A stretch of DNA of 64,000 nucleotides from Candidatus Latescibacterota bacterium (GTDB lineage Bacteria; Latescibacterota; UBA2968). The translations under genes were made by a program, and so were the position numbers. The stretch is from NCBI GenBank assembly GCA_965207885.1, contig OZ242311.1, positions 3,872,001-3,936,000 on the forward strand, written 5' to 3'. Under the pieces are notes generated by a model, which worked only from the letters and a program-made list of their open reading frames with translations, did not search any database and was not told where the DNA came from. Of the stretch, positions 10,229 through 64,000 are shown piece after piece. Position 1 is the stretch's first letter. The number at the start of each line of letters is the position of its first letter.

Positions 10229-10238
10229 AGGAGGAAAA

Positions 10239-11057
10239 ATGACACCCATACCCATGACCGACGAGCAAAAATTCTTCTTCGACCTTCGCGGCTGGATCCT
10301 GCTGCCATCTGTGCTATCGGCAGCCGAGATAGAAGAGATGAAAGCCGAAGTATATGCCGGTGCCAGGAGGAGTTATGAGGGCGCGCTTCAGAACCTGCTG
10401 GACCACCCGGCAATCGTCGGCATTCTAAACGAAATTCTAACCGAGGAACCTTTTGTAAAAGACGATTGCTACGGCTTCCGCTGCGAAGGCTCCTTCACCA
10501 CCGTGCGACCTCCCGGATGGGACAAATCGGAACGGAGAGACAACGGCATGCCCCACGTCGTGCGTCCCCCCCAGCGAGCCAACGCCATGCGCTATCAGGT
10601 CGCGGGAAATAAAATTTTTGCCGGGCTGACCCGGGTCGTATGGGAACTCGAGGAAGTGGTGGCAGGACAGGGCGGAACCTCTTTTCTCAGCGGATCACAC
10701 AAAGCGCACTTCAATTACGGAGGCCCGGATCCGTTTCGACCAAATATCGGCGGTTCCCCCTATGAATCCAGTATGAGAGATGCAATGAATGATTATAGCT
10801 GCCCCGCAGGCTCGGTGGTTATCTTCACGGAAAGCCTGATCCACGCGGCCAACGACTGGATCAATCCGAATAACCCGAGATGCGCGGTCTTCAACTGCTA
10901 CAACTCCATCTGGGCACAATGGCATCGCCTCAACCTCGACCACGAAACAATCGAAGCCATGCCTCCGAAGCGGCGGACGCTCTTCCGCGGCACCTGGGCA
11001 ATTGGTGGCGGGCCAAATGGCAACCGCGAGTACTCCCTGGATAACAGAACCGTCTAA
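10239..11057 (+). CDS. PhyH-family Fe/2OG oxygenase-like protein with atypical iron motif
   Basis: EQKFFFDLRGW, WEL..V..G.GG...L.GSHK, PAGS..IFTESL.H..W, R. Start ATG 10239 after GGAGG. Confidence 0.8.
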   Translation: MTPIPMTDEQKFFFDLRGWILLPSVLSAAEIEEMKAEVYAGARRSYEGALQNLLDHPAIVGILNEILTEEPFVKDDCYGFRCEGSFTTVRPPGWDKSERRDNGMPHVVRPPQRANAMRYQVAGNKIFAGLTRVVWELEEVVAGQGGTSFLSGSHKAHFNYGGPDPFRPNIGGSPYESSMRDAMNDYSCPAGSVVIFTESLIHAANDWINPNNPRCAVFNCYNSIWAQWHRLNLDHETIEAMPPKRRTLFRGTWAIGGGPNGNREYSLDNRTV

Positions 11058-46625: not shown

Positions 46626-46643
46626 ATCACTATCCTCCAATTC

Positions 46644-49600
46644 TCAAAACTGAATTTCCAGACCGATTTCCACTTCGCGCGGATGATACCTGTAGCGCGT
46701 GGCTTCTCTCGGGTCGCCATATAGCAAAAACTCGGTATCATCTGGCGGGGGTAGCCGCAACCCGTACTGTATATACGTGAAATCCGAATCTCGGCTCTCC
46801 GTACTCCTTTCATTGAACAAATTGCTCACCTCCAAAAATAGCGTGGGACGCAAATTGCCAATGGCTCGAAAATCTTTGGCCGCGTAAAGATCCGTCTTCA
46901 TCACCGTTGCTCCCGTGCGAAATTCGCGCGGGCCAATCGGGGGAACATACTCAAACGGCTCACCGCTGAAAATGCGGTAAATCATACTCACGCGCAGACC
47001 GCCAAATGGATTAATCGCGCCCATTTGGGGTCCATAAGCCATCGGCGTGGCATAATACAACTGAAGCGACAACTGATTCCTGCGCTGTCCGCCGGTAGGT
47101 TCTGCCGAAAAGACTTGCCCATTTGAAGCCGTCCATATCCCGTTATCATTGGTTTTGATGGGAGGCTGCCAGGGACCTGCACCTGGCCCCTGTGACCCGG
47201 CTTGCTCGGTCCAAGACACGATATTTGCCTCGGCTTTAGCGCTAATATCGGCCACTTGCTCAGATGTGAGCGGCACGGGCCTCTCCGAACCATCGGATTG
47301 CACTTCCCAATCGGTCCAGTAGTGTCCGCCCGAAATAAAATCGGCATCGGGAAGCACATACCAGTTCGCAGAGTGTTTGCCGTAGTGAACGCCACCCGGG
47401 TCGCGCACCCATTCGGCGTTGTAGGACAAATTGAACTGGAAATTATTGCTAAACGTCTTCTTCAGCGACAATTCAATCCCGCGCGCTGTCTGCCAGTAGG
47501 TATTGCGTATGGCGTTGACCTGTGAGGACTGGCCTCTGAGGGGATCTACCCAATAGGAAATGTTGTTTCTGGAGTACAATCCCTCATCGCGCCGATAGTG
47601 TGCCGTAATACTCGCCGTATAATCAGCCACAAAATTCCAATCCACCCCCATTTCCATACTCGTCGTGCGCTGGGGTTTCATGCCATCGGACGGCTGCCGC
47701 GCCGTGGTATGCACTTCCATAGCATTCCACTTTTCGGTCTCATCAATAATGCCGTTGCCATTGAGGTCATTGTCCGGCGCCTCACTCGAGAACTGTCTGC
47801 GATGGGTCTCGAGGAGCACGGGAAAGACATTCGCTCGACCAATGAAATAGTGCGCTGCCAGACGGTCTGTAATCGGGTGTGACAGGCCCACGCGAGGACT
47901 CAATGCCGTCATTGTTGGCTTCGAACTATCGAGGTGATCCATTTCATACCGCGCCCGCGTAAACGTGCTGTACATCGGCGATTTGCCCAGCGCCTCTCCC
48001 ATTGAGCCATTGCGCCCAAAATTGTAATAATCCCAGCGCAAACCCAGATTGGCGACCAGACCCCCGTACTCGATCTTGTCCTGCACGTACAGGTTCAGCG
48101 TCCACGGTTTCACATTTTTGCCCAGTTCAAAACCATCTGCCACAAACTCGAGAAAACGACTCTTGGTATTGTCAAAATCTTCTCGCGTGCGGTGATATAA
48201 CCGTTGTGTGAGCACCAATCCCGTCTGAATCAAGTGCGACCGATTGACCTGACTCACAAAATCGTATTTGATGCCGTATCTCGTATCTTCCTCTTCGGTG
48301 TATTCGCGCAACAGCGTGGGCAAATTGAAAAACCCCGCCTTATCTTTGCGCACGGCTTCGGTGGCATCCGGCACATCGAACGCATCACGGTCGTATTTGT
48401 TGTAGAAAAATTTCAGGTCGTAATACGTGTTTTCGCCCAATGTATGTGTCAGCGTCAATACCTGGAGCTGCCGCGACAAGGTGTAAGTTCCCGAAGCTGA
48501 AAAATCCTCGGGAAAGAAAATATTTTGTGCATTATTGCGCGTCGATCCCTGAAATCGATCTGACCGTTGATACATACCCAGTGCTTTAACCTTGATATCT
48601 GCACCGGGCCGATACGTCAATGTCGCCTGCATGCGCGGTGGATCGTCCGATACCTGTTCAGCCGCCGGGAACCTGGCCGGACTGCGGGCATAACTCACAC
48701 TGGCAAAATACGAAAAATCGCGTGAGAGCGGACCGCCCAATGTACCTTCCAGGCGGTGTCCACGCTTGTCCGTATAATCGACGCGTTCGTGCGCCATACG
48801 CTCGACATCGTCAGACGTTCCCAGCGTGCGATCTGGTCCTGGATCCATATACGTTTCATTCACCCAATCGGGATTGTCCCATTGCACATTGTCTTCAAAT
48901 CCGGGACTTTCATAAACATCTCGACCCCAGTGCTTTTTGCCCGCAGGTGTGAACTTATACTCCACCCGACCGGAGAAATTGCCTCGACCTTCTTTTGTCA
49001 CCAGACTCACAATACCCGCCCCCGCATTGCCAAATTCTGCATTCATACCGCCGGTTAGCACACTCAATTCCTGAATAGCCGTGGTATTTACGCCCGTAAG
49101 CATGCTCCGATCAACTTCAATCCCATCGATATAATAGCCCACCTGCGTACCCGTTTGCACCTGCGTTGAACTTCCGCGAATGCGGTTGGTGCCATCCAGC
49201 GCCATACCCGGTTGCAACGCGATCAATTGCGATGTCGATCTCACCTGCGGCACAGCCTGAATATCTGCCGCGGAAACCACGTATTTGCTCGTGGTTTTAT
49301 CTGGCTCCACAGGCGGGCGCTCCGCCACGACAACCAGCTCGGCCAATTCCAGACTGGCTTCTTTCAGTGCAAAATCCACCGTGGATGTATAATCCACAAT
49401 CACCTGCACCGCTTCTTTCTTTTCCGTGCCATAGCCCACCATCGTCGCCGTAAGGGTGTACATGCCGGGATCTACAGCCAGAATTAAATAGCGGCCCTCG
49501 GCATCGGTAGTCGCTCCTTTGCGGGTCCCTTCGAGCGTCACATTAGCGCCCGGTAAGGACTCACCTGTAGCGGCATCTGTGATGACACCCGTAATTTTTC

Positions 49601-49670
49601 CCGCTGTTGTCGCCATGGCCGATGTACCCATCAGCAACAACAAAATAAATCCCAATATTAACTGCTTCAT
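46644..49670 (-). CDS. TonB-dependent receptor
   Basis: Signal peptide, GKITG.I.DA.TGE.L.GANV carboxypeptidase-regulatory domain, plug IRG...Y.IDG...TGG.NAEFGN, terminal PR....GL...F. Confidence 0.92.
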   Translation of the reverse strand: MKQLILGFILLLLMGTSAMATTAGKITGVITDAATGESLPGANVTLEGTRKGATTDAEGRYLILAVDPGMYTLTATMVGYGTEKKEAVQVIVDYTSTVDFALKEASLELAELVVVAERPPVEPDKTTSKYVVSAADIQAVPQVRSTSQLIALQPGMALDGTNRIRGSSTQVQTGTQVGYYIDGIEVDRSMLTGVNTTAIQELSVLTGGMNAEFGNAGAGIVSLVTKEGRGNFSGRVEYKFTPAGKKHWGRDVYESPGFEDNVQWDNPDWVNETYMDPGPDRTLGTSDDVERMAHERVDYTDKRGHRLEGTLGGPLSRDFSYFASVSYARSPARFPAAEQVSDDPPRMQATLTYRPGADIKVKALGMYQRSDRFQGSTRNNAQNIFFPEDFSASGTYTLSRQLQVLTLTHTLGENTYYDLKFFYNKYDRDAFDVPDATEAVRKDKAGFFNLPTLLREYTEEEDTRYGIKYDFVSQVNRSHLIQTGLVLTQRLYHRTREDFDNTKSRFLEFVADGFELGKNVKPWTLNLYVQDKIEYGGLVANLGLRWDYYNFGRNGSMGEALGKSPMYSTFTRARYEMDHLDSSKPTMTALSPRVGLSHPITDRLAAHYFIGRANVFPVLLETHRRQFSSEAPDNDLNGNGIIDETEKWNAMEVHTTARQPSDGMKPQRTTSMEMGVDWNFVADYTASITAHYRRDEGLYSRNNISYWVDPLRGQSSQVNAIRNTYWQTARGIELSLKKTFSNNFQFNLSYNAEWVRDPGGVHYGKHSANWYVLPDADFISGGHYWTDWEVQSDGSERPVPLTSEQVADISAKAEANIVSWTEQAGSQGPGAGPWQPPIKTNDNGIWTASNGQVFSAEPTGGQRRNQLSLQLYYATPMAYGPQMGAINPFGGLRVSMIYRIFSGEPFEYVPPIGPREFRTGATVMKTDLYAAKDFRAIGNLRPTLFLEVSNLFNERSTESRDSDFTYIQYGLRLPPPDDTEFLLYGDPREATRYRYHPREVEIGLEIQF

Positions 49671-49691
49671 AATCCTCTCCTCGTTTGAGAT

Positions 49692-50384
49692 CTACCAGTA
49701 CAATTTGAACGCCGTCCTGAAATCGAACATCGCAATGGGAAATACTCCGGGCAGATCCCACGCCTCCATCGGACGCAAATCACCCAAAATCATGTGATAA
49801 CGCCCGCGGATATCCAGCCCGAATCGCCCCTGCACCACCGTCATGCCCAACCCCACATTCGCACCCAGAGCCGTATGTTCATCCTCTCGATCATCCAGCA
49901 TCAGATCCGCATTCAAAGGCTCTTCTTTTTGCCCCGGATAAATCAGACCAGTAATCCGATCCTGATAATCGTAGAACCCCGCTCCCACAGCGATATATGG
50001 CAAAAGTTGCAAATCACTGCCGGACTTTCGGGTATTGAGATACGCCAGAGCATTGATCAAAAAGCTGTTGAGATTAAACCGAGAATTTGCATCGGGACTC
50101 AAATATTGTTGCTTGTCAATAGGCCAGGTAAACGCCAGACCTTCGATCTTTCCGTCATCCATTGTCAGATGATGGTATTCAAACTCCATCGTAGCACGCG
50201 AACTGACCTGATAATCCAGCACCGCACCATATACCTGAGAAGCCGAATACCGATCGTGAAATCCCAGCACGGGCACGCTGCGGTTAAAAAACACGCCAGC
50301 ACCGTATCGAGCCTCCTGGGCAGAAACCGGCACCGCGATCAACAATGCCAGCAGCCACATATTCAACATCAAATATCTATTCAT
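49692..50384 (-). CDS. Outer-membrane beta-barrel domain protein
   Basis: Signal peptide, amphipathic strands (PYIAVGAG, G.NVG.G), terminal W. Start ATG 50384 (AGGAG RBS). Confidence 0.65.
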   Translation of the reverse strand: MNRYLMLNMWLLALLIAVPVSAQEARYGAGVFFNRSVPVLGFHDRYSASQVYGAVLDYQVSSRATMEFEYHHLTMDDGKIEGLAFTWPIDKQQYLSPDANSRFNLNSFLINALAYLNTRKSGSDLQLLPYIAVGAGFYDYQDRITGLIYPGQKEEPLNADLMLDDREDEHTALGANVGLGMTVVQGRFGLDIRGRYHMILGDLRPMEAWDLPGVFPIAMFDFRTAFKLYW

Positions 50385-50539
50385 AGATATGTCTCCTTTT
50401 AACAGTACACAGTTGTATAACATGCCACATCTCTTGTCATATTGCCTCCTTTCCAGGGAGCACAAGTATTTATCTCTATTGAAGCGATGTACAACTTCGT
50501 AGAAGTTTAACCGTCGGTATTTTCCTCCTCTCTCAAGTA

Positions 50540-50666
50540 TTGACAAAAACACATAAAATTGTTATGGTTTTTGTTTTTTGTCGTACGATGGATTTCTAAA
50601 TCCTTTATACGGTCACCTGGTCGTTAGCCCGACCTCGCCAAAGTTCGAAGGCTAACGGCCTTTTTT
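50540..50666 (+). ncRNA. Candidate approximately 90-nt small RNA (promoter plus terminator, no ORF)
   Basis: TTGACA(50540)-17-TATGGT(50563); 11-bp stem GGTCGTTAGCC/GGCTAACGGCC plus T6 at 50619-50666; both flanking genes are on the minus strand. Confidence 0.4.
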
Positions 50667-50704
50667 ATATGACCAAACAGAAATTCCGAATGTTCCAACC
50701 CCGC

Positions 50705-51475
50705 TCAAACCCCTAACTTCTTGATAAACGCCAGATTCTTCGCGTGATCGGCATTTGGGTCATCGCCCGAAGGCGTCTCCAGAACAATGTACCCATCGTA
50801 ACCGATCTCGCGCATCGCCGCATCCACCGAATCAAAATCCACGCGCCCGTCTCCCAATGCCTGCCGGTCCGTATCCTTCGCGTGAATCATCCCGACACCC
50901 TCAGGCCCCAGCTTCAAAATTTCCTCAGCCGGATCCTGTCCGCGCGTCATCGTATTGCCCGTATCGTGATAGACCTTCACCGCAGGAGACCCCACGCGAT
51001 CCAAAATCATCACCAGTTGATCCGCGCTAAAGGTCGTCTCCAGATCCAAAATCACGTCGTGTTCTTCCGCAACATCGCCCAGTGCTTTGAACCCATCCAC
51101 CAGTTGATCCCACGTCGAATCCGGCCACTCATCCATATCTCGCGGAAACATCGGCACCAAAATATGCCGCGTATCAACGGCAGCGCACGACCCAATCACA
51201 TGCGTCAAAATCTCAACACCCTCGGCGCGCTTTTCCGCTTCTGGCAATGCGGGATGAAATTGTGAAAACACCCCTGGCGACAGTGAAGAAATCTCAACAC
51301 CCGCCGCATCTGCCAATCCCTTCAGCTTCTCTGCCCCACCATCCTCCCACAAAATATTCTCCCCATAGTCTCGCCCAACGCAAAACTCCACCCCATCAAA
51401 TCCAATATCCTTCGCCACTGAAAATACCGCTTCCAGCGGTGCTTTTAACATATTATCTCGAATACCGTATTTCAC
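50705..51475 (-). CDS. Sugar phosphate isomerase/epimerase (xylose-isomerase-like TIM barrel)
   Basis: GFDGVE, LE, Y.DTGN, IH.KD, G.G.VDF, GY.G..VLE. Confidence 0.88.
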   Translation of the reverse strand: MKYGIRDNMLKAPLEAVFSVAKDIGFDGVEFCVGRDYGENILWEDGGAEKLKGLADAAGVEISSLSPGVFSQFHPALPEAEKRAEGVEILTHVIGSCAAVDTRHILVPMFPRDMDEWPDSTWDQLVDGFKALGDVAEEHDVILDLETTFSADQLVMILDRVGSPAVKVYHDTGNTMTRGQDPAEEILKLGPEGVGMIHAKDTDRQALGDGRVDFDSVDAAMREIGYDGYIVLETPSGDDPNADHAKNLAFIKKLGV

Positions 51476-51730
51476 AATAAATCTCCTTTCAGATATTTAA
51501 TTAAAACTTAAAGAACCAATTTATAGAATTTTCTATATTTAATAAATAAAATTTATTACAGGCCTTCATTAAAAAAGACAATAGGGTTCCAAAAGATTCC
51601 ACTCGCATTTTACCTTTTACAACTTTCACCTTGTCCGCCTGCCGTAAATAGCTTATAAATGATAACGCGATGTGCTGCTTTGTGTTTTTTTGTAATACAA
51701 ACATATGTTTCTAATAGAGATGAAACCTTT

Positions 51731-52828
51731 ATGTCTTTGACAGAATCTGCGGACTTACGAACCAGAAGTGCTAATCGACCCGTTATGAATAGACCTGATG
51801 AGCTACCGCCATTTCCCGAGGGGTGGTATTTCGTCGCAAGCCGCGAGTCCATTCTGCGAGAGAAACTGATCGAGAAAACGTGGCTGGGCGAGGAAATCGT
51901 CGCCTGGTGCGACGAGTCAGGCCGTGTCTGCGTGGCCGACGCGGTATGTCCGCACCTGGGCTCGCACCTGGGGCCGGAGGTCGGTGGGAAGATATGCAAT
52001 GGTCGCCTCGTCTGTCCTTTTCACGGATTTGAGTACGATACGACCGGTCAATGCGTTGCGACTCCGAATGCCCCGGCACCCAGAGTTGCGAGACTGAAAG
52101 TATATGAGACGCGAGAGAGCCTCGGCATGGTCTTCGCCTGGTTCGGGAGCGGCGGCCGGCCGCCGCAGTGGGACCTTCCAAACGAGCCAACCACTGGACA
52201 AGAGTGGTGTGAACTGGGATTCAACATACTCCGGTTCCGTGGACATCCCCAGGAAACAACCGAGAATTCCGTGGATCTGGGACATCTGCGCTACGTGCAT
52301 GGTTACGACAATGTGAATCCAGTCGGTTCGGTAACGGTAGATGGTGCCTATTTGAAGAGTTGCTTTGACTTCAAACGCGTTCGCAAAATCCTGGGTGTAA
52401 AGGACCTCGTGTACGAACCCTCGGCCATCACCCACGTCTATGGACTGGGCTACTCCTTCGTCGAAATCCACGAGAAAACTATCGATATGAATGCGAGATT
52501 GTGGGTGCTCGCAACGCCCATTGATGGCACCCTCATCGATCTTGCATTGGTCAGCCAGGCGCGAGAAATCCGCAAGCCCAGGCGATTCATCTCAGGCCTG
52601 GGGTTTCTGCCGATGAAGCTGCGCCACAGGCTGATGAATCGCATTTTGTTGTCACAACAAAAACGGGATGTCCTGCAGGATGTGGTGATCTGGGAACGGA
52701 AACGGTATCGGCCTACCCCCAGGTTGTGCCGCGCCGACGGCCCCATAGGGAAGTACCGCCGGTATTGCCGGCAGTTCTATCCGGATCCGACAATTGCGAC
52801 GGGAAGTGGAGACTCGATCTCCGATTAG
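51731..52828 (+). CDS. Rieske non-heme iron oxygenase, Neverland/DAF-36 (sterol 7-desaturase) or KshA type
   Basis: PFPEGWY, CPHLG.HLG...CPFHG Rieske ligands, EN.VD..H...VH mononuclear site, D..IW..K.Y...P.L...DGPI..YRR...QFY tail. Confidence 0.8.
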   Translation: MSLTESADLRTRSANRPVMNRPDELPPFPEGWYFVASRESILREKLIEKTWLGEEIVAWCDESGRVCVADAVCPHLGSHLGPEVGGKICNGRLVCPFHGFEYDTTGQCVATPNAPAPRVARLKVYETRESLGMVFAWFGSGGRPPQWDLPNEPTTGQEWCELGFNILRFRGHPQETTENSVDLGHLRYVHGYDNVNPVGSVTVDGAYLKSCFDFKRVRKILGVKDLVYEPSAITHVYGLGYSFVEIHEKTIDMNARLWVLATPIDGTLIDLALVSQAREIRKPRRFISGLGFLPMKLRHRLMNRILLSQQKRDVLQDVVIWERKRYRPTPRLCRADGPIGKYRRYCRQFYPDPTIATGSGDSISD

Positions 52829-52919
52829 GCGGCAGCCGATGAGGGCGCATCATGTACGGCTGGCGGTTCAGGAAGGCACCCTGACTTGAGGGGCCCGCGC
52901 GAAGGCGCGCCAGGCGGGC

Positions 52920-53954
52920 CTAAAGAGGCTTGCGAGCCAAGAAACAGTACAGCGGCGTAAAGATACCCGCCTTGCCGCCCGCGATATAAGCCTCCGCGGT
53001 CCGATCCAGAAGTCGGATGACTTCCGCGGAGCCCTTCGGAAAGAGCCGCAGTACTTCAGCCAGCTTCGATCCTGTGATGACCGCTTTACGGCCCCACGGA
53101 AGCCTGCGCAAGGCGTTTCCGACCGTCCCATGGCGACTCTCCATGGGTTGATACCAAGGTGTGGAGGGTCCTTCCTGGATCGCCCGGTCCATCCCTTCCA
53201 TGACTTGGAATCCCGCGGCTCCGAGCGCGTGATCCACTTCCCCGAAGGTGGCGATGTCCTTCAGCGCAATGCCGCGCATGAGATCCTCCTTGATGGCCCG
53301 ATGCCGGTCATCCTTCGGATCGAACTTGCCCGTCAGACACATTTCCTGCCCCCAGAACAGGGCACCGGGTTTCAGCACGCGGAATACCTCCTCGAAGGCG
53401 CGTTGCTTGTCCGGTGCATGGCACGTTGACTCTATGGCATAACCCCGGTCGAAGGTATCGTCCTCAATGGTGCTCATGTCCATGAAGCTGCACGTCTCGA
53501 AATCGACCATGTGATCAAGCCCCGCCTCGGCGTTCAACCTCTTCGCCTCTTCCAACTGGATCTCATTGATGTTGATTCCTACAACCCTGACACCAGCCTC
53601 ACGGACGACGCGGCGCATGGGGGCGCCGACTCCACAACCAACGTCGACCACCGTCATACCCTGTTGCAATTCCAACTTGGAAATCATCAGCCGCTGATGC
53701 CGGACCTTGGACTCCTCCAGACTCTCATGAGGCGTGAGGGGCGCGAAGTGCAGGGACTGGCCCCAGCCCCACACCATGAACCCGCTACAAAGGTCGTAAT
53801 AGTCTTTCACCGTTTCCGTGTGATCGTACCCGCCCGCGCCACCGGGCTCCAGTACCGCCCGGTCGAGCCAGCCGTCGAAGTGCTGCACTCGACGTGCGAC
53901 GCCCGATCCCCGGTACGCATCTCTCAGTTCTCTTGACAGTTTGCACAGCCGCAT
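52920..53954 (-). CDS. smt: Sterol C24-methyltransferase (ERG6/SMT family)
   Basis: All SMT regions in order: YYDL...F..WGWGQSLHFA (I), DVGCGVG.P (II), YAIESTCHAP (III), RVLKPG (IV), PWY.P, GG..GIFTP.Y.FLARKP. Confidence 0.88.
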   Translation of the reverse strand: MRLCKLSRELRDAYRGSGVARRVQHFDGWLDRAVLEPGGAGGYDHTETVKDYYDLCSGFMVWGWGQSLHFAPLTPHESLEESKVRHQRLMISKLELQQGMTVVDVGCGVGAPMRRVVREAGVRVVGININEIQLEEAKRLNAEAGLDHMVDFETCSFMDMSTIEDDTFDRGYAIESTCHAPDKQRAFEEVFRVLKPGALFWGQEMCLTGKFDPKDDRHRAIKEDLMRGIALKDIATFGEVDHALGAAGFQVMEGMDRAIQEGPSTPWYQPMESRHGTVGNALRRLPWGRKAVITGSKLAEVLRLFPKGSAEVIRLLDRTAEAYIAGGKAGIFTPLYCFLARKPL

Positions 53955-53996
53955 TTCGTGGTGTTTTCCCCCCTGGCTCTACAAGGAGCCAAGTCG

Positions 53997-56030
53997 TCAG
54001 GTGAACAGCTCCCGTCTCTGCTGGGAGATGTGGAACTTCAGCTTCTTGCTCGGTTTCAGCGACGGGAACGGACTGAAACGGAGCTTGTGCTTGTACTTCG
54101 CCGGCGACACCTCAATAGTGAAGTAGTGCGCCAGCATCAGCAAGTTGGCCGCCAGGTGCAGCTCCATCCACCGGGTGCCGAGACACTTGTGCGTGCCCAG
54201 CCCGTACGGGGCGTACCCGGGGCTTCGGTGTTCATGGCGCAACGGCAGGTAGCGGTCGATGTCGAACTTGTAGGGGTCGGGAAAGACCTCGCTCATGTAA
54301 TGCGTGGCGGTCATGGCGATGTGGATCCGTTCCCCCATGGGCAGCTCGTAGTCCTCGACCACGCACGTATTCATCACGTTCCGAATGGACATGGAGACGA
54401 TCGGGTACATGCGCATGCACTCCATGAGGAAGCGGTGGGTAACGTCAATGTTGGCGGGGGTGAAATCCTCTCTCTCGGGGTCTCCCTTGGCGAACAGGGC
54501 ATCTGCTTCGGCCTGAATTCTGGCGTAGAGGTCGGGCTGCGACGCCATGGCATAGACTACGAGGCTGAACGTATCGCCGAGGTACACGCTGGCAATCAAG
54601 GCCGCGGAAAAGGAGAACAGAAGGTTGGACTCCGGGAGAAACTGCGGGTCGCTCGCGTGCAGGCTGAGATAATCGTCCACCAGGTCCCGCGGGCTGTCCA
54701 CTCGTTGGGCGGGGGTATGGATGTCCTGGACCCGCTGCATCAGTGTGTCCAGGGCTTTCGCCCGGCGTCTCATGCCCGGGGTGTTCAGCGTGAATCTGGG
54801 CAAGAGCTTGGCGACGTGCACGCTGAGGGCCCGTTCCTTGTACGCCATCAGGTCGTCCATGAGGTCCTGGGTATCGACGCCGATGAACAGTGGGGAGAGC
54901 TGGGCGTTCACCATCTCCCGGCACATGGATGTGGCGCGGTATGAGTCCCCAACCGTCAAGCTCGCCATGTACTTGCGCCCCTGATTGTAGAGCTGGTCTA
55001 GCTGCCCTCCCAGCCTCACGGCAGAATAGGCGGGCGACAGGGACTGGCGAAGCCGGAAGTGATCGGCTCCGTCCAGGGCGGGCAGGACGCCGGACGCGCC
55101 GTAGACCTTCTCGAAGTCGCTGAAGTAGTCCCTGGCTCTCAGGTACATGCGCCCGCGCTTGTGCACCCAGCGGTTTGTCTCGAGTCCGGCCAGGAAGATC
55201 ATGGGCTTCGAGAAGGGAGGGCGAATCTGGAACACCGGACCGTACTCCTCCGCAAGGTTCCCGAAGAGCGCGTTCAGGTTGCCGTCTCGACTATGCGGGT
55301 TCAGCAGCAGCTTGGGCAGCGAAACCGTCGGAATTTTCCTGGCAAGGGCAGGACGTCGAAGGGCTGGGCCGGCGAGGTTCTGAGAGACCGCAGAGGCCAG
55401 GGAGCGGCCGATCAGATCCATCTTGCAGATGAACTCGATGCGCTCCTCCGCCTCGTCGTCGAGCTGGAATATGAAACGAAAGACGTCGCAGGTATTGACG
55501 AGGCAGATAATGATGACATCTCTCGGATCGGGAATCTCGTCGGTGAAGATGACCCTGCTGATCCGCGTTTTTATGAACTGGCCTGCAGTGCCCTCTTCCG
55601 ACTTGCTGGACAGTTCCCCACGCCAGACGGTAGGAGCCAGTGTCCAGAATTCACCGTCGTGATATTCCAGGATCTTCAGGTCAACCAGGCGGTCCAGAAC
55701 CGAATCAATGATCGACTCCGCACGGGGAGCGAGCCGTTCGATCCAGTACTGGGCGTTCCGTTGAACAGATTCGGCTGCGATTTCTTTCAGAATGGGGTCC
55801 AGGGTAGGTCTCCCCGTTTCCGACTCGTCCACGAGGAACAGGGATTCCAGGTCCGTGTCGATGCGCGATCTGAGTGAAAGCTCCGCGAGCACGGCACCGA
55901 CCACGGCGCAGTTCAAATGCCAGCCGGGTACCTGGTGAAAGTAGCCAGTCTCCTCGTTGAGGAGCATCAGGATGAGCTCTTCGGTGAGACTTAGCGATTG
56001 GGGCGTCAAACCCTCGGTAGTATTAGCCAT
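53997..56030 (-). CDS. GPP34/GOLPH3-like domain fused to cytochrome P450
   Basis: N-terminal LSL.EEL.L..L...G...GAVL.EL.L..RI...TG...LD..L..I; C-terminal ECMR (ExxR), F.DP..FD..RY, PYG.G.HKCLG heme Cys. Start ATG 56030 (GGAGG RBS). Confidence 0.85.
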   Translation of the reverse strand: MANTTEGLTPQSLSLTEELILMLLNEETGYFHQVPGWHLNCAVVGAVLAELSLRSRIDTDLESLFLVDESETGRPTLDPILKEIAAESVQRNAQYWIERLAPRAESIIDSVLDRLVDLKILEYHDGEFWTLAPTVWRGELSSKSEEGTAGQFIKTRISRVIFTDEIPDPRDVIIICLVNTCDVFRFIFQLDDEAEERIEFICKMDLIGRSLASAVSQNLAGPALRRPALARKIPTVSLPKLLLNPHSRDGNLNALFGNLAEEYGPVFQIRPPFSKPMIFLAGLETNRWVHKRGRMYLRARDYFSDFEKVYGASGVLPALDGADHFRLRQSLSPAYSAVRLGGQLDQLYNQGRKYMASLTVGDSYRATSMCREMVNAQLSPLFIGVDTQDLMDDLMAYKERALSVHVAKLLPRFTLNTPGMRRRAKALDTLMQRVQDIHTPAQRVDSPRDLVDDYLSLHASDPQFLPESNLLFSFSAALIASVYLGDTFSLVVYAMASQPDLYARIQAEADALFAKGDPEREDFTPANIDVTHRFLMECMRMYPIVSMSIRNVMNTCVVEDYELPMGERIHIAMTATHYMSEVFPDPYKFDIDRYLPLRHEHRSPGYAPYGLGTHKCLGTRWMELHLAANLLMLAHYFTIEVSPAKYKHKLRFSPFPSLKPSKKLKFHISQQRRELFT

Positions 56031-56061
56031 CGGTTTCTGCCTCCCTGCATCATAAAGTGCA

Positions 56062-59000
56062 TTACCCGGTACCGGCGCCGGAACGGCCCCGCGAAGCAAT
56101 CAGACGCAGATGGATGGTGTAAAGTGCGGGAACGACCATCATGAGTATAGCCGTAGTAAAGAGAATGCCGCAACCGAGCGAGGCGGCAAAGGGGATCAGG
56201 AACTGGGCTTGGATGGCACGTTCCAGAATAAGGGGAGTGAAGCCGAGGAACGTAGTCACGGAAGTGAGCATGATCGGACGAAAGCGCCCCTTGGCGCCCT
56301 CCACGATCGCCGTCCTTGCCAAGGCGCCTTCCCCGATTCTCTGATCGATGAAATCGATCATGACCAGGGAATCGTTCACGACCACCCCACTCAGGCCGAA
56401 GATACCCATGAAAGATACGGCACTCAGGGCTACTCCCAGGACCCAGTGACCCAGGATCACTCCGATGAACCCGAAGGGGATGACGGCCATGATGATGAAC
56501 GGCTTTGTATAGGATCGGAGGGGGATGGCGAGCAGCGCGAAGATCAGGAGCAGGGCAATCGCAAATCCGCGATACAGCGCATCCAGGGATTCGAGCTGCT
56601 GTTGTTGTTCCCCTCCGAAGCTGTATGTCAGGTCTGGGTGCAGGGCGGTCAGATCCGCGAGGATCGAATTGGTCAGGATGTCGTTGGCTTCGTCGCCTGA
56701 AATCACCGAAGCATCCACGTCCGCAGTGACCGTGACGACGCGCTGGCCGTCCTTCCGTCGAATGGCCGGCGGCGACACCCCTGGGTTCAGGGAGGCCACA
56801 CTCATGACCGGGACCTCGGCCCCGCCCGGCGTACGGAGCAGGTATCCTTCGACATCGGTGATGGATTTTCGTTCATCGGAGGGCAGGCGCACATAGACCC
56901 GGACCTCTTCCCGGTCGCGCTGCACCCGAACGGCCTCTGCGCCGAAGAACGCCGCCCGTGCCTGCCCGGCCAGGTCGTGGAGTGTGAGACCGAGGGTTCG
57001 CGCTTCCGGCCGCAGCTCCAGTTGAACTTCCGGGATGCCCGGGGAGTGGTCCGAACGTATGTCATAGACGCCTCCCACCCCACGGAGTCCATCGACCACG
57101 GAGTCTGCAATCCGGGCAAGGCGCTCCGGGTCCGGATGCGACAACACGGCCTCCACCGGGTTGCCCAAGTCGAAGACCTCGCCGCTGAAGGTGATGCCGC
57201 GTACGTAGGGCAGCACCCCCACCTCCTCCCGCCATGCCTGCACGACCTCTCCGGTGGAGATTTCTCTCTGTTGGGCACCCAGGAGTTTGAACTCAATGGT
57301 GGCGATGTTGGCTTGCGGATTGAGGGTCGGCTCCGGATTGAGCCCGCCCGCGAGTCTCGAGCCCTGTCCGACGGTCACCGTTACGCCGGTCAGCAGCGGT
57401 GGTGCATCCCCGGGCCGCCCGCGCGAGAGTCGTTCGATGACCCGGTGGCCTGCGGCCTCCAGTTCCTGCGCCACTTCGTACGTCCTCGGAGCGGTCGCCC
57501 CATCGGGCATCTCCAGGACGACCGTCGCGATATCCCCTTCCACGTCAGCGGCCAGCGTGGTAGGAACGATCCCCGCGGGCAACAGGGAGATGCTCAGCAC
57601 GAGCATTCCCACAGCCCCCGACATCGTCACCGCGGGCTGGTCGGTGGCAAACTGCAGGGCCCGATCCAGCGGGCCCTGGACGAACCTGTTCAGCAGCGCG
57701 TCAACGCGCCCCTGGAGCCGCGCGAAGAACCGGTCGAAGGCATTGGCCGGCACCCACTCCGGACCGTGCAGGTGGGACAGGTGGTTGGGCAGCACGAACA
57801 GCGATTCGACCAGGGAAACCAGCAGCATGGCGATCATGATGATCGGCAGGGCCCGCCACACCTCACCGACGCCGCCGGGAATGAACAGCAACGGGACGAA
57901 GGCCACCACCGACGTCAGAACTGCGAACGTCAACGGCACCTTGATCCGTCGTACGCCGCGGATCGCGGCCGTGACCCCGGGTGTTCCCCGCTTGCGTTCG
58001 TATTGAATGTGCTCGGCCACGACGATGGCATCGTCGACGATGATTCCTATGGCGAGGACAAAGGAGAACAGGCTGATGGTGTTGATCGCCACGTCGAATG
58101 CCATCATGATGGCGAGGGCACCGATTCCCGAAACGGTGAGGCCCACGGCGACCCAAAGCGCGAGCCGGATTTCGAGAAACAGGCTGAGTGCGATCAGCAC
58201 CAGCAACAGGCCCAGGATCCCGTTCTTGAGGAGAAGATCGGCGCGTTCCTCATAGACCTGGGATTCGTCATTCCACATGGTGACGCCCACACCGTCGGGT
58301 AGGGAAGGGATCACTTCGTTTGCCAGGTGCTGTCGGACGGTCGTGGCGACATCCATCACTTGCTCACCAGCGGCGCGGTAGATCTCCACGAATACCCCGG
58401 GATGGTTCTGGTGCCGGATGATCAGGTCTGCTTCCTGAAAACCGTCGCGAACCTCGGCGATATCTCCAAGGCGCAGGACCGTGCCGTCACGTCCGCTGAG
58501 AAGGACGATCTCCTCGAAGTCCTGTTGGTCGTAGTTCTGGCCGAGGGTGCGGACCCGCACCTGGGATTCCCGGGTATTGATACTGCCGGCAGATAAGTCC
58601 AGGGAACTGCGACGAATGGTGTTGGCTATGTCGGTGAGTGTGAGTCCAAGTGCTCTTAGCCGATGAAGCGGTACCTCGATAGAGATCTCGTATTTCCGAA
58701 TACCACTGACTTCGACCTGGGACACGGAGGGAAGTGTTGTGAGTTCATCTTCGATCTGGTACGCCAATTCTTTCAGCGAGCGCTCAGGTACATCGCCATA
58801 TACAATGAGCCGCATCATGCTCATGCGGTTGGTCATCTCCCTGAAACTGGGACGATCGGCACCGGCCGGGAAAGACTGTATGCGATTGACCGCAGACTCG
58901 ATATCGTTCAGCGCCTGGACCATATCCGTACCGAAATCCATTTGAATCCGTACGGATGCCATACCCGGGGCCGATACGGACTTGACCGCCTTCACGTCAT

Positions 59001-59256
59001 CCAACCCGCTGACCTGGTCTTCGATCTTGACGACGATCGACTCCTCGATCTCCTCCGGTGTGGCGCCGGGATAGGCCATCGACACTTCGATATGGTAGAA
59101 AGGGGTGGTCGGCCACGCTTCCCGGTCGAGTCCGGTCAGCGACACCAGCCCGGCGGCGATAATGGCCCACATCAGTAGATTGGCGGCTATACTGTTACCA
59201 GCCATATAAGCTATGGGACCACGCTGTTCCCGTGCGGAACCTTCTTCCCGGTTCAT
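56062..59256 (-). CDS. RND efflux permease (AcrB/AcrD/AcrF family)
   Basis: N.IAANLLM, YPGATPEE.EE, GI.VDDAIVV.E, G.VVND, RFRPI.LT..TT..G..PL. Confidence 0.95.
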   Translation of the reverse strand: MNREEGSAREQRGPIAYMAGNSIAANLLMWAIIAAGLVSLTGLDREAWPTTPFYHIEVSMAYPGATPEEIEESIVVKIEDQVSGLDDVKAVKSVSAPGMASVRIQMDFGTDMVQALNDIESAVNRIQSFPAGADRPSFREMTNRMSMMRLIVYGDVPERSLKELAYQIEDELTTLPSVSQVEVSGIRKYEISIEVPLHRLRALGLTLTDIANTIRRSSLDLSAGSINTRESQVRVRTLGQNYDQQDFEEIVLLSGRDGTVLRLGDIAEVRDGFQEADLIIRHQNHPGVFVEIYRAAGEQVMDVATTVRQHLANEVIPSLPDGVGVTMWNDESQVYEERADLLLKNGILGLLLVLIALSLFLEIRLALWVAVGLTVSGIGALAIMMAFDVAINTISLFSFVLAIGIIVDDAIVVAEHIQYERKRGTPGVTAAIRGVRRIKVPLTFAVLTSVVAFVPLLFIPGGVGEVWRALPIIMIAMLLVSLVESLFVLPNHLSHLHGPEWVPANAFDRFFARLQGRVDALLNRFVQGPLDRALQFATDQPAVTMSGAVGMLVLSISLLPAGIVPTTLAADVEGDIATVVLEMPDGATAPRTYEVAQELEAAGHRVIERLSRGRPGDAPPLLTGVTVTVGQGSRLAGGLNPEPTLNPQANIATIEFKLLGAQQREISTGEVVQAWREEVGVLPYVRGITFSGEVFDLGNPVEAVLSHPDPERLARIADSVVDGLRGVGGVYDIRSDHSPGIPEVQLELRPEARTLGLTLHDLAGQARAAFFGAEAVRVQRDREEVRVYVRLPSDERKSITDVEGYLLRTPGGAEVPVMSVASLNPGVSPPAIRRKDGQRVVTVTADVDASVISGDEANDILTNSILADLTALHPDLTYSFGGEQQQQLESLDALYRGFAIALLLIFALLAIPLRSYTKPFIIMAVIPFGFIGVILGHWVLGVALSAVSFMGIFGLSGVVVNDSLVMIDFIDQRIGEGALARTAIVEGAKGRFRPIMLTSVTTFLGFTPLILERAIQAQFLIPFAASLGCGILFTTAILMMVVPALYTIHLRLIASRGRSGAGTG

Positions 59257-60449
59257 GGATCACCTCCGATCCGCACCACCCTGCCTTCGGTTGCGACCTT
59301 TATCCCGCCTATGACGACCGCCTGACCGGCTTTCAGCGTGCCGGTTACGAACACCTTATCATCGGAACGCTGAAGGACGCGCACTGGGACGATGGTCAAT
59401 AGTGTGTCATCGCGCACTGCCCAGACCTCGTTGCCCGGTCTGAGTGCTGATCGCCGCAGGATGAAGTACTGGTCTGGGATGATTCCCTCAATTCGCACTT
59501 CTGCGAATTTGCCCACGAGAAGGGGCGGGCCAAGATCTGCGCCTGCCCCTTCGACTCGGGTGCCGCTTGTAAAAGGATTCGGGACGCGTACGATGACGTT
59601 GATGGTGCGCGTCTGTTCGTCCAGGGATGCCTCTGCTCGATCTACATAGCCCTCCCAGGCATAGCTCCCGTCGCCGTATTCAGCGATGACACGAGCCTTG
59701 ACCCGCCTATCTCCGTCGCCCGCTTCCAGCCCCCAAAGGCCGGGAATAAGGGCCGCATTGGCATCGGAGAGGGGAACTACCACCTCTACTGCGTCGGTCG
59801 CGTAAAGTCGCCCCACGCTCTGACCGGCTACCACGAACTGCCCCACATCTATCGATTCTGTCTGCACGACACCTCTGAAAGGCGCGCGGACTTTTGTGCG
59901 TGCCAGAGCCAACTCGGCGTCAGCGAGCACAGCACTATCTCTGGCCACCGAGGCGCGGGCTGCCTCGAGTTGAGGCTCCCACAGCGCAAGGGGATTGGCT
60001 TTGGCTATATCCGTTTGGTCACGTCTGAACTGCGCGTACTCAGCGCGTGCGATCTGGGCTTCTTCATTCGCCCTGAGGAGTGCGACATGCTGCGCGGCCA
60101 CGTTGGCACGCGCCTGCTGAACTCTGTTGAGGTAGTCGGCATCATTAATGCGGAAGAGAACCTGCCCTTTTCTGACTCGTCCGCCACTCTGAAACGCCGG
60201 ATCTACCCAAACAACCTTACCATTGATTTCAGCGGCAACATCTATCTCTGCGACGGGCCGAACCGTTCCGGCCCCGTACACGGGAATTGCACCAGCACCG
60301 ATCGCCGCCGGAGCCGTGACTGCGAAAGGCGCCCGGGAAGTAAGAGGCCGGACTTCCTGCTCAGGCTTCAGCCAGACCATAAAGTAGGCAACCGTCAAGG
60401 ATATGAGAAGGATGGCACCTGCCACAAGTAAGCTTCTTCCGCGATTCAT
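59253..60449 (-). CDS. RND periplasmic adaptor (MFP) subunit
   Basis: N-terminal TM, G.V.KGQ.L..I lipoyl half-motif, L.RT...APF.G, GQ.V; ATGA overlap with the RND gene. Confidence 0.92.
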   Translation of the reverse strand: MNRGRSLLVAGAILLISLTVAYFMVWLKPEQEVRPLTSRAPFAVTAPAAIGAGAIPVYGAGTVRPVAEIDVAAEINGKVVWVDPAFQSGGRVRKGQVLFRINDADYLNRVQQARANVAAQHVALLRANEEAQIARAEYAQFRRDQTDIAKANPLALWEPQLEAARASVARDSAVLADAELALARTKVRAPFRGVVQTESIDVGQFVVAGQSVGRLYATDAVEVVVPLSDANAALIPGLWGLEAGDGDRRVKARVIAEYGDGSYAWEGYVDRAEASLDEQTRTINVIVRVPNPFTSGTRVEGAGADLGPPLLVGKFAEVRIEGIIPDQYFILRRSALRPGNEVWAVRDDTLLTIVPVRVLQRSDDKVFVTGTLKAGQAVVIGGIKVATEGRVVRIGGDP

Positions 60450-60525
60450 CTCTCTTCTCTTTTCATTAAAGTCCGATAATCACCCGGGGTAACGCCTCTC
60501 TTCCCTACGCCGAGTTCTAACGCTG

Positions 60526-61641
60526 TCAACAGAAGATTTCGTCTCCAATATCTATTTGCGGCAACACCGCACACAACACCTTCGCAAAAGCTTGCCGCTC
60601 GGCGGATAGCCCCACGGTCACGCGAATGCAGCGGTCGAGCGGATCCACGCCTGGCATCCGCACGAAGACCCCGTGCTGCAAAAGCATCTGCATCAGCCGC
60701 CGCGCTCGCTCGCCACTACCCACGTCGAGGGCCACAAAATTAGTCGCCGAAGGCACCGTTTGCAGCCCCAATTCCGCCGCCAGCACCGCGTATTCCCGTC
60801 GGCCTTCCTCTACTTGCCGCACCACCGAGCGCACGAACGCATCGTCGCCCAGCGAAGCAAGTGCCCCAGCTTGGGCGATGCGATTGACGCCAAAGTGATT
60901 GCGCACCTTGTCGAGCGCGGCCACCACATCGCGGTGTGCCAGCGCGTAGCCGACCCTGGCCCCAGCCATGCCGTGCGCCTTGGAAAACGTCCGCAACCGC
61001 ACCACCTGTGCCCGTTCCACTTCCAGCGGCAACAGGGCATCCTCCGGCGCGAAGTCGATATACGCCTCGTCGAGCAGCAACACACAATCCGGCGGCAACC
61101 CCACGATAAAATCCCGCAACTCGTCGGCTCGCTGATAGGTGCCCATGGGGTTGTCGGGATTGGCCACGTAGATCAGCTTGGGGCGCACTTGCCGCGCCTT
61201 GTCCAACAGGGCCGGCAAGTCCTCTCGATCCGCGCGATAGGGCACCTTGTGCAACACCGCCCCGTGCCCCTCGACGTGGTAGTTAAACGTGGGATAGGCC
61301 CCCAGCGACGTCACCACCGCGTCGCCCGGCTCGGCAAAAAGGCGCACCAAAAGCCCCAACAGTTCGTCAATCCCCGCACCCAAGACGACCTCTTCCTGCG
61401 CCACCCCGTGCCGCACCGCCAACGCCGAGCGCAGCTCGTATCCCTCTGGATCGTTGTACCAATGCACTTGCTCCACCGCCTCTACCATGGCCTGCCGCGC
61501 ACGCGGCGAGATACCAAAATTGCTCTCATTAGCACCAACTCGCAGGGCGAGCGGCTGCCCTTGCTCCCGCTCCAATGCCTCGGGCGGCACAAAGGGAACG
61601 GTCGCTGGCAGGGCGCGGACGATGTGCGTAAACGGCAACAC
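60526..61641 (-). CDS. PLP-dependent class I/II aminotransferase (HisC-like)
   Basis: GANE, G.DE, NPDNP.G, DEAY, RTFSKAHGMAG.RVGY, TNFV, IRV.VG. Confidence 0.85.
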   Translation of the reverse strand: MLPFTHIVRALPATVPFVPPEALEREQGQPLALRVGANESNFGISPRARQAMVEAVEQVHWYNDPEGYELRSALAVRHGVAQEEVVLGAGIDELLGLLVRLFAEPGDAVVTSLGAYPTFNYHVEGHGAVLHKVPYRADREDLPALLDKARQVRPKLIYVANPDNPMGTYQRADELRDFIVGLPPDCVLLLDEAYIDFAPEDALLPLEVERAQVVRLRTFSKAHGMAGARVGYALAHRDVVAALDKVRNHFGVNRIAQAGALASLGDDAFVRSVVRQVEEGRREYAVLAAELGLQTVPSATNFVALDVGSGERARRLMQMLLQHGVFVRMPGVDPLDRCIRVTVGLSAERQAFAKVLCAVLPQIDIGDEIFC

Positions 61642-61644
61642 GGG

Positions 61645-62463
61645 TTAAGACCACACGTAGATTTCGTCGTCGTCTTCGGCATAGCCAATGAAGACGGCGA
61701 GCACCACCCGCGGATCGTCCCCCTGTACCGCAGGGACCTCGTGGATGCAGCGCGTATTGAAGAAATACAAATCGCCCGGCTCGAGCGCGACCTCGCAGTG
61801 CGCCACGCCATGCGCGGCCGCATATTCGTGAAAACGGCCCTCGGCGATATACGGCTGTATCTCCTTGGTCCACAGACAGCGATGCAACACAGCCTGCACC
61901 CCAGGTCCTGCGGAATCCGCGTTCTGTACGCACAGCACACCGGCAAATTGGTGGGTAAAGCGCGTCACCTCGTAGTTGAACCGCTTTTCGCGCAGAACGA
62001 CGTGGTCGATGTGCGGACTATAGGCGTGGGTCTCGTAGTGGATGCGAAAGATGGCCGGGCCGTACAAGCACCCGTCGCGCTCGCGCGCCGTCTTAACCTC
62101 CTTATTGGAAGCCAACGCCTGCAAGTGCCTATAGAGCAGTTGCACCGGGTCGAGCAAACCCGCAAAAAGGGTAGCAAAAAGCGCTTGCGTCTCCTCCGCA
62201 TCTGCCAAGAACGCCTCTTGGTCGCCGCCCAAGTTGCCGAGGCTGGTGCCAATGTCGATGCGCGTGCGCTCGTCGCCCGCAGCGCGCAGCAACCCGCGCT
62301 CGGCAAAGCGTTCCATCAGCCGCTGGCAATCGGCTGGCGTACAGACCTGGGGCAACAGAATCGCCGGTATCTCCGCCCGAGCCAAGGCGCCGAGCGGATC
62401 GGCGCACGCGTCCGGCCCCACGGGCCGCCAAGCGGCTCTTGTGTGACCCTGTGGATACTTCAA
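61645..62463 (-). CDS. Fe(II)/2OG oxygenase-like protein
   Basis: PHID, L.PGDLY.FN...IHEV..V.G..PR. Confidence 0.7.
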   Translation of the reverse strand: MKYPQGHTRAAWRPVGPDACADPLGALARAEIPAILLPQVCTPADCQRLMERFAERGLLRAAGDERTRIDIGTSLGNLGGDQEAFLADAEETQALFATLFAGLLDPVQLLYRHLQALASNKEVKTARERDGCLYGPAIFRIHYETHAYSPHIDHVVLREKRFNYEVTRFTHQFAGVLCVQNADSAGPGVQAVLHRCLWTKEIQPYIAEGRFHEYAAAHGVAHCEVALEPGDLYFFNTRCIHEVPAVQGDDPRVVLAVFIGYAEDDDEIYVWS

Positions 62464-62502
62464 TGCGGATCCTTCCTTTTAGCCTTTGCAGATGCCCTAT
62501 GC

Positions 62503-63870: not shown

Positions 63871-64000
63871 TACGCACTCCCTATAAAAACATGAGAAACA
63901 ACACTCTCGCACAATTTACAACAACCCATCCCGTCTCGCCAGTTCTTTCCCCGTATATACTCAACGATTCAGACGCCTTTTCCATTCATCGCCATCAAAT

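Follow-up and report, generated by a model that had tools for sequence, protein, structure and literature searches.

A GPP34-P450 fusion protein from a putative mobile cassette of sponge-associated bacteria is a candidate sterol-tailoring oxygenase

Bacterial proteins in which a GPP34 domain is followed by a cytochrome P450 have been described under the name GPP34_L, an architecture that the main text of that report confines to bacterial symbionts of sponges, across many phyla (Ferreira et al., Microbiome 2025;13:4; PMC11706023). The same text counts 656 P450 fusions among 663 long GPP34 proteins, lists further proteins in which GPP34 is joined to a Rieske domain or an ABC ATPase, and proposes that GPP34 proteins are secreted effectors that bind phosphatidylinositol 4-phosphate (PI4P) and halt phagosome maturation. 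In GOLPH3 the PI4P pocket is formed by W81, R90, R171 and R174, and the Vps74 equivalents are W88, R97, K178 and R181 (text of PMC2806290). Bacterial sterol clusters with side-chain methyltransferases also have been reported from sponge symbionts (Brown et al., Nat Commun 2023; main text of PMC10070321). Here we analyze a GPP34-P450 fusion gene in a 64,000-nucleotide stretch of DNA (the window) from a Candidatus Latescibacterota bacterium (assembly GCA_965207885.1, contig OZ242311.1, positions 3,872,001 to 3,936,000). The fusion as such was already known, and the protein is a further GPP34_L member, with the two-domain order and size given in the main text of PMC11706023. The first-pass annotation of the window had valued it as a functional clue for bacterial GPP34, and that value is weakened because the architecture is in print. 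Set against the effector proposal of the same main text, however, the protein has none of the pocket residues, and its gene context is one of lipid tailoring. We put the probability at roughly one in two that it is an oxygenase that tailors sterols in the cytoplasm, with the GPP34 domain serving as an adaptor and not as a PI4P binder; its gene neighbors point to sterol modification, not to the published host manipulation.

The fusion gene and its parts are located as follows, in coordinates of the window.
53997..56030, minus strand: GPP34-P450 fusion gene, 677 amino acids (open reading frame, translation and Pfam), with the stop codon at 53997-53999
56040..56045, minus strand: Shine-Dalgarno-like GGGAGG, nine bases before the fusion ATG (read from the sequence)
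55383..55988, minus strand: GPP34 domain, residues 15-216 (Pfam, profile alignment and fold search of the model)
54000..55346, minus strand: P450 domain, residues about 229-677 (Pfam, sequence and fold comparison)
54579..54593, minus strand: I-helix residues A480-S481-V482-Y483-L484, at the place of the A-G-x-D/E-T of relatives (alignments)
54183..54185, minus strand: codon of the heme ligand Cys616 (translation and alignment)

Pfam analysis of the protein revealed a GPP34 domain (PF05719, profile positions 1-199 of 201, E 7.7e-29, 101.6 bits against a cut-off of 29.1) and a P450 domain (PF00067, E 3.3e-33). In the full-length model (predicted local distance difference test [pLDDT] 89.0, predicted template modeling score [pTM] 0.86), the two are joined by a short, low-confidence linker of four residues (225-228). 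An AlphaFold model of residues 1-224 (pLDDT 83.4, pTM 0.83) was compared with the PDB by fold search. All eight matches at E <= 0.001 were GOLPH3 or Vps74, with template modeling (TM) scores of 0.59-0.71, and a beta-hairpin at residues 121-131 sits at the position corresponding to that of GOLPH3/Vps74. The ExxR residues (E537 and R540) and the heme ligand (C616 in YGLGTHKCLG) are invariant in an alignment of 52 fusions (A1), comprised of 42 distant clusters with both domains, the window protein, its paralogue and eight closer homologues. These results bear out the first-pass reading of a GPP34-like N terminus joined to a full P450 with ExxR and heme cysteine. The sequence also was inspected for a signal peptide and a transmembrane helix, and neither was found.

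Close relatives of the protein form at least 120 clusters at 75-99% identity, all with both Pfam domains and 664-686 amino acids long. In an exhaustive search of 1.84 billion cluster representatives for distant relatives, the best 150 matches were considered, and among these were 47 further clusters of 630-720 amino acids at 25-58% identity, from which the 42 distant members of A1 come. Since both domains and a similar length recur across at least 120 clusters, the fusion is not an assembly artifact; that it might be unique to this assembly, which the first-pass annotation had named as a finding that would tell against it, is ruled out.

The likeness to GOLPH3 does not extend to the lipid-binding pocket. 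A profile of 17 bacterial domains aligned with GOLPH3 (E 1.5e-10) places P35, V44, E105 and I108 of the window protein at W81, R90, R171 and R174, and pairwise alignments gave the same replacements. None of the 52 fusions has Trp in the W81 column, and none has Arg or Lys in the R90 column (Ala in 35, Val in 11) or in the R171 column (Asp in 24, Glu in 13); Arg or Lys occupies the R174 column in 24 of the 52. In addition, the GPP34 part (residues 1-226) is acidic (pI 4.54; 38 Asp plus Glu against 21 Lys plus Arg; net charge of about -17), and the P450 part is basic (pI 9.03). Because the pocket residues are replaced and the domain is acidic, the domain is, judged by its sequence, a member of the GOLPH3 fold family that fails the GOLPH3 functional signature, and on the same grounds a conserved GOLPH3-type PI4P pocket is excluded. 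PI4P targeting in the manner of GOLPH3, one form that the membrane- or lipid-targeting role proposed in the first-pass annotation could take, therefore was not borne out. Bacteria, to our knowledge, are not generally known to make PI4P. With GOLPH3 and Vps74 (PDB 3kn1, 9qpq and 2zih) the domain shares the fold and a profile match over nearly its whole length; unlike them, it is acidic, has its pocket residues replaced, is fused to an enzyme and comes from a cell with no Golgi.

Prediction of a complex between the two domains (residues 1-226 and 229-677, supplied as alignments) gave scores of 0.00, 0.42 and 0.27 against a mark of 0.32, in runs without controls; we count these scores neither for nor against an interface. 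A GPP34 domain packed on the P450 as a fixed adaptor would be compatible with the pTM of the full-length model and with the four-residue linker. The GPP34-Rieske and GPP34-ABC ATPase fusions listed in the main text of PMC11706023 would fit a general role of the domain in bringing lipid-handling proteins to the membrane.

The P450 domain is unusual in its I-helix, which is a continuous helix (residues 467-496) in the model. The stretch AALIASVYLGDT (476-487) is kept in 113 of 121 close homologues; the other eight have M (six) or A (two) in place of the final T. When 49 full-length fusions were aligned, the A-G-x-D/E-T seen in most clusters fell on A480-L484 and was followed by a one-residue deletion. 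A second alignment puts the deletion one place earlier, with Y483 facing the conserved Thr. The acid-alcohol pair (A/G)Gx(D/E)T is absent under either alignment. G485-D486-T487 lies one turn further on and is unconserved, reading GDA, GSG, GAG, GSA or GNS in the nearest clusters; because the canonical motif aligns to 480-484, this GDT is not the acid-alcohol pair, and the I-helix therefore is non-canonical in another register. Of the non-canonical I-helix claimed by the first-pass annotation, the absence of the pair thus stands, but the GDT that it took for the counterpart of the motif is not one. Y483 and G485 are invariant down to 36% identity in the subfamily of the window protein, which we call type A (alignment A2, nine sequences, also used for the locus search); the canonical motif is present in most other fusions and in 17 of 21 stand-alone relatives.

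In P450s that lack the (A/G)Gx(D/E)T proton-relay motif, the reaction usually is a rearrangement, is driven by peroxide or is assisted by the substrate. P450s without the acid-alcohol pair include CYP74 allene oxide synthase, CYP8A/CYP5A, P450nor, P450eryF and the CYP152 peroxygenases; none of these is close to the fusion in sequence or fold searches. We know of no P450 with an invariant Tyr at this place in the I-helix. By analogy, the missing pair together with the invariant Tyr suggests that oxygen may be activated in an atypical way, or that the enzyme may act as a desaturase or lyase.

The closest solved structures by sequence are the heme domain of Methylococcus CYP51 (E 4.8e-17, over residues 406-651 only), CYP120 and a plant taxadiene hydroxylase. 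By fold, in a Foldseek search with the model, they are CYP184A1, Methylococcus CYP51 and P450 BM3 (TM score of 0.83 on the target). The Methylococcus capsulatus CYP51-ferredoxin protein (6mcw and 7jj1) is likewise a bacterial fusion protein, and it is a sterol enzyme and the best solved relative by sequence; the P450 of our fusion, however, is only about 20% identical to CYP51 in the Foldseek alignment of the model. No strong full-length similarity to CYP51 was found, the E value of 4.8e-17 comparing with 1.7e-103 for the real CYP51 encoded beside an orthologue (see below). Because that true CYP51 adjoins the orthologue, the fusion is an additional P450 of sterol clusters and not a 14-demethylase. 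We also considered the fusion as a substitute for CYP51 where an ERG24-like reductase adjoins it, and rejected this, a separate true CYP51 being present in the same cluster.

The genes around the fusion provide the link to sterols. They and the segment that encloses them are as follows.
52920..53954, minus strand: sterol methyltransferase (SMT)-like S-adenosylmethionine (SAM)-dependent methyltransferase, 344 amino acids, 42 bases downstream of the fusion (Pfam)
51659..52828, plus strand: Rieske [2Fe-2S] oxygenase with a KshA_C domain, 389 amino acids, convergent with the SMT gene (Pfam)
56062..59256, minus strand: AcrB-type resistance-nodulation-division (RND) permease, 1064 amino acids (Pfam)
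59253..60449, minus strand: RND periplasmic adaptor (membrane fusion protein), 398 amino acids, overlapping the RND gene by 4 bases (Pfam)
51620..60486, no strand assigned: shared cassette of 8.9 kb (DNA homology and composition)

The SMT-like protein matches Sterol_MT_C (E 2.8e-15, 56.6 bits against 21.7) and also contains a SAM-methyltransferase core; its MVWGWG is what we take to be the counterpart of the YE(Y/F)GWG region. The best solved relatives of the Rieske protein are 3-ketosteroid 9-alpha-hydroxylases (E 1.2e-23). These are the only Sterol_MT_C gene and the only KshA_C gene of the genome. On the other side of the fusion, 31 bases separate the stop codon of the RND permease from the fusion ATG. 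A scan for promoters and terminators found no more sites than in shuffled sequence, and it did not define an operon. When window positions 46000-64000 were compared with 20 same-phylum loci, of which five belong to the window's genus, DNA homology was confined to about 51,620-60,486, and the flanks were unshared. The cassette has a GC content of 0.59-0.64 and a skew near 0, and the rest of the window has a GC content of about 0.53 and a skew mostly of -0.15 to -0.3. The cassette is an island acquired as a unit.

In order to determine how far this arrangement is shared, we scanned one genome per species. Relatives of the fusion were found in at least 580 of 600 candidate stretches, and the neighbor counts given here are for the best 80 loci, in which the orthologues are 69-99% identical to the window protein. 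These loci carry nine phylum labels (Latescibacterota, Gemmatimonadota, Rhodothermota, Acidobacteriota, Nitrospirota, Verrucomicrobiota, Binatota, Chloroflexota and Thermodesulfobacteriota); the labels are the submitters' own, and 7 of the 80 records are titled only "bacterium." Within 10 kb of the fusion there was an SMT gene in 72 loci, a Rieske gene in 70, an RND gene in 42 and an adaptor gene in 31, several of the contigs being too short to show neighbors. In the same-phylum loci these genes were adjacent in 12 (SMT), 18 (Rieske), 20 (RND) and 18 (adaptor) of 20. The Chloroflexota loci have no AcrB-type pump, and the fusion there still is 69-74% identical. In L079, the one Dehalococcoidia locus scanned by Pfam, an 827-amino-acid MMPL protein with Patched/sterol-sensing domains is encoded beside the SMT gene, and three other Dehalococcoidia loci have an open reading frame of the same size at the same place.

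In a FastTree tree of 79 orthologues and the window protein, from which L042 was left out, all sequences fell in one shallow clade, and the phylum labels needed 13 changes against a minimum of 8. Within its own phylum the family is patchy (78 of 168 genomes and 10 of 49 genera), but it is present in all 20 genomes of the window's genus. DDE transposase genes were seen beside the cassette at L051:13184-15076 and L042:13408-15288, in genomes labeled Acidobacteriota and Rhodothermales. The adaptor gene (59253-60449) is just 54-62% identical in L011-L013 and L032-L040, where RND, fusion and SMT are 83-97% identical, and is 87-90% identical in same-genus loci. Because the adaptor diverges where the other three stay close, its sequence points to a probable recombination boundary within that gene or adjoining it. 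In four loci of other phyla (L069, L070, L073 and L092; e.g., L070:12067-13443) the fusion adjoins a gene for an amine-oxidase/phytoene-desaturase-like flavin adenine dinucleotide (FAD) protein, which is absent from the window cassette.

One orthologous locus, L096, places the fusion within a complete set of sterol genes. Its order is adaptor, RND, a canonical-type fusion, a type A fusion (73% identical to the window protein), an ERG4/ERG24-family reductase (E 1e-69), CYP51 (E 1.7e-103 to the Methylococcus enzyme), an epoxidase-cyclase fusion, SMT and Rieske. The epoxidase-cyclase fusion (L096:14134-17955) is a single polypeptide of 1273 amino acids containing squalene epoxidase, cyclase N and cyclase C domains, and cyclase matches in frames of 1211-1315 amino acids come from four further genomes. 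A cyclase was found at E <= 1e-10 in 12 of 24 genomes that carry the fusion under other labels, and in 5 of the 24 it lies in a frame of that length, 5-13 kb from the fusion. The link to sterols or lipids that the first-pass annotation had proposed is thereby upheld, by the Sterol_MT_C methyltransferase and KshA-like Rieske neighbors and by an orthologue inside a full sterol cluster. We also observed tandem fusion genes, one canonical and one of the Tyr type, at L096:7773-9797 and 10001-12016, and a further tandem in G143 (C1:2167834-2170560).

The genome of the window organism (one contig of 6,228,721 bases, 97% complete) contains no match to PF13243 or PF13249 (cyclase C and N) or to PF08491 (squalene epoxidase), and no cyclase was matched in 20 other genomes of the genus. 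Any sterol substrate therefore must come from outside. Two adjacent SQS_PSY genes (C1:935464-937031; E 1.5e-69 and 1.1e-82) may, by their family, make squalene or a carotenoid precursor. As in the clusters described in the main text of PMC10070321, an SMT-family gene here accompanies a putative Rieske-type sterol enzyme in an uncultured, probably sponge-associated bacterium; unlike those clusters, this genome has no cyclase.

Three GPP34 genes are present in this genome: the fusion studied here, a short form of 223 amino acids and a second fusion of 653 amino acids. The second fusion (C1:5692347-5694308, plus strand; L007:9348-11309) has a canonical I-helix, reading AGLDT. A PhyH dioxygenase gene and an overlapping sulfotransferase gene flank it, with a CysQ/inositol-monophosphatase-family gene nearby and no pump beside it. 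Sulfotransferase homologues, often two or three in tandem, flank this fusion type in 11 of 15 loci of the phylum. This context suggests that its P450 may take part in lipid hydroxylation that is followed by sulfation. The short GPP34 protein (C1:4663019-4663690, plus strand; L008:9020-9691; Pfam E 3.4e-45) is encoded next to ThuA and nitroreductase genes, and of the PI4P pocket it keeps only the equivalent of R174.

The stretch was also traced in public sequencing runs. Of the sampled words of the SMT-fusion stretch, a fraction of 0.60-0.62 was found in runs labeled sponge metagenome (four studies) and 0.63-0.67 in one marine-metagenome study. The SMT, fusion, RND and adaptor genes are matched at 90-99% likeness by metatranscriptome contigs from three studies, and one RNA-library contig spans the SMT-fusion junction; these contigs indicate presence in RNA libraries and are not proof of transcription.

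We infer a sterol substrate from the sterol-type neighbors of the gene and from its orthologues in sterol clusters. In the mechanism that we propose, the fusion would belong to a horizontally mobile cassette of sponge-associated bacteria that encodes a KshA-like Rieske oxygenase, an SMT-like methyltransferase, the fusion itself and a lipid exporter. The substrate here would be a sterol from outside, i.e., from the sponge host or neighboring cells. The P450 would catalyze an atypical oxidation, e.g., a desaturation, or would have its proton relay supplied by the substrate or by Tyr483, and its probable target is the sterol side chain or nucleus, on which it would work together with the methyltransferase and the Rieske oxygenase. 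The RND pump would then expel the product. The acidic GPP34 domain would be a fixed adaptor on the basic P450 which positions the enzyme at the membrane or hands over a lipid substrate, and which, as the first-pass annotation had plausibly proposed, stands in for the transmembrane anchor of eukaryotic P450s.

Several observations weigh against this reading. Twelve of the 24 other fusion-bearing genomes have no cyclase, and since the window genome is unable to make sterols, the sterol substrate is deduced from orthologues and from the families to which the neighbors are named as belonging. The SMT in the true sterol clusters (L096, L081 and L073) is only 40-46% identical to that of the window; the L096 Rieske protein has a VanA_C-type domain, and in L081 the closest Rieske match reaches only 26% identity. 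There is no ferredoxin or reductase gene in the cassette. The site of the I-helix deletion is ambiguous, Y483 lying opposite the acid in one alignment and opposite the Thr in the other. The role proposed for the GPP34 domain is conjectural. Finally, the two SQS_PSY genes make an endogenous acyclic triterpenoid possible as the substrate.

This last point leads to an alternative in which the substrate is an endogenous acyclic or other isoprenoid lipid (e.g., squalene derived) that is methylated by the SMT-like enzyme, oxidized by the P450 and the Rieske oxygenase, and exported. SMT-like enzymes of Botryococcus methylate squalene. A genome that has neither squalene epoxidase nor cyclase, yet has two adjacent SQS_PSY genes, would suit such a pathway, as would the cyclase-less half of the other carriers and the amine-oxidase/phytoene-desaturase-like FAD enzymes of the cassettes L069, L070, L073 and L092. 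It is harder to reconcile with orthologues that stand beside squalene epoxidase-cyclase fusion, CYP51 and ERG4/24 genes, with a Rieske oxygenase whose best solved relatives are 3-ketosteroid 9-alpha-hydroxylases, with the sterol-sensing domain of the L079 transporter, or with a P450 whose nearest solved relative by sequence is a sterol enzyme. We regard an isoprenoid substrate as unlikely, though less so than the rival readings that follow.

A cassette that opens the breakdown of host sterols as a carbon source, its Rieske oxygenase and P450 acting as in actinobacterial steroid degradation, would account for a KshA_C-type oxygenase and a P450 in a genome that has no sterol synthesis. These enzymes, however, are partnered by a methyltransferase of biosynthetic type and by an efflux pump, and no genes for uptake or ring cleavage accompany them (a genome-wide search for kstD/hsa was not made); the conserved block stops at five genes, and the same genes occur inside sterol biosynthesis clusters in other phyla. 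Catabolism thus seems improbable to us.

The published view, in the main text of PMC11706023, is that GPP34 proteins, the P450-fused form included, are secreted effectors that bind host PI4P and stop phagosome maturation. The homology and fold held in common with the PI4P effector GOLPH3 are real, the distribution within the phylum is patchy outside the window's genus, and the stretch occurs in sponge-metagenome runs of four studies, which matches the sponge link of that report. The domain, however, is acidic and has lost all four pocket residues, no basic or Trp residue occurs at three of these positions in any of the 52 fusions, and the protein has no signal peptide. An efflux pump gene and a methyltransferase gene closely flank the fusion gene, and a P450 requires heme and a cytoplasmic NAD(P)H-driven redox chain, which counts against a secreted effector. 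The terms "sterol," "methyltransferase" and "efflux" are absent from the main text of PMC11706023. For this protein we hold the effector role to be quite improbable, a shade more so than catabolism.

That GPP34 docks the P450 onto the RND pump, another idea of the first-pass annotation, draws on the 31-base spacing and on an adjoining RND gene in 20 of 20 same-phylum loci, but it fared worst and is scarcely credible, since AcrB-type RND is missing from 38 of 80 orthologous loci, the fusion keeps 69-74% identity in pump-less Chloroflexota, L079 has an MMPL/sterol-sensing transporter instead, and the paralogous fusion of the same genome has no pump beside it.

Returning to the sterol-tailoring oxygenase, what appears to be new relative to the main texts searched is the sterol-cassette context, the lost pocket and the two I-helix subfamilies, together with the sulfotransferase link of the second subfamily and the existence of carriers that have no sterol synthesis. 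P450, Rieske and Golgi are not mentioned in the main text of PMC10070321, nor are P450, Rieske, GPP34 or symbiont in a 2025 bioRxiv paper on SMT. A literature search on GPP34, sterol and sponge together found only an unrelated review, and one on sterol methyltransferase in Gemmatimonadota found none.

Few reported bacterial genes are as sponge-specific as the GPP34-P450 fusions, and the sole published idea of their role, a secreted PI4P-binding effector, fits neither the sequence, which has an acidic domain, no pocket residues and no signal peptide, nor the gene context. The I-helix in which Tyr replaces the acid or alcohol marks a P450 subfamily that may do unusual chemistry. If the fusion is a sterol-tailoring enzyme of a mobile cassette, this would be the first function for the GOLPH3 fold in bacteria, and it would offer a testable handle on any bacterial shaping of sponge sterol profiles, with a bearing on Neoproterozoic sterane biomarkers. 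A more speculative extension, for which we would claim little confidence, is that the Tyr-type fusion, the SMT and the KshA-like Rieske enzyme work as a trio, a host-sterol remodeling module, in which symbionts without sterol synthesis take up sponge sterols, desaturate and alkylate them and pump the products back, GPP34 being a general adaptor of soluble oxygenases to membrane lipid. If that is true, bacteria would have a part in the unusual sterols of demosponges with alkylated side chains, the compounds behind the 24-isopropylcholestane "sponge biomarker."

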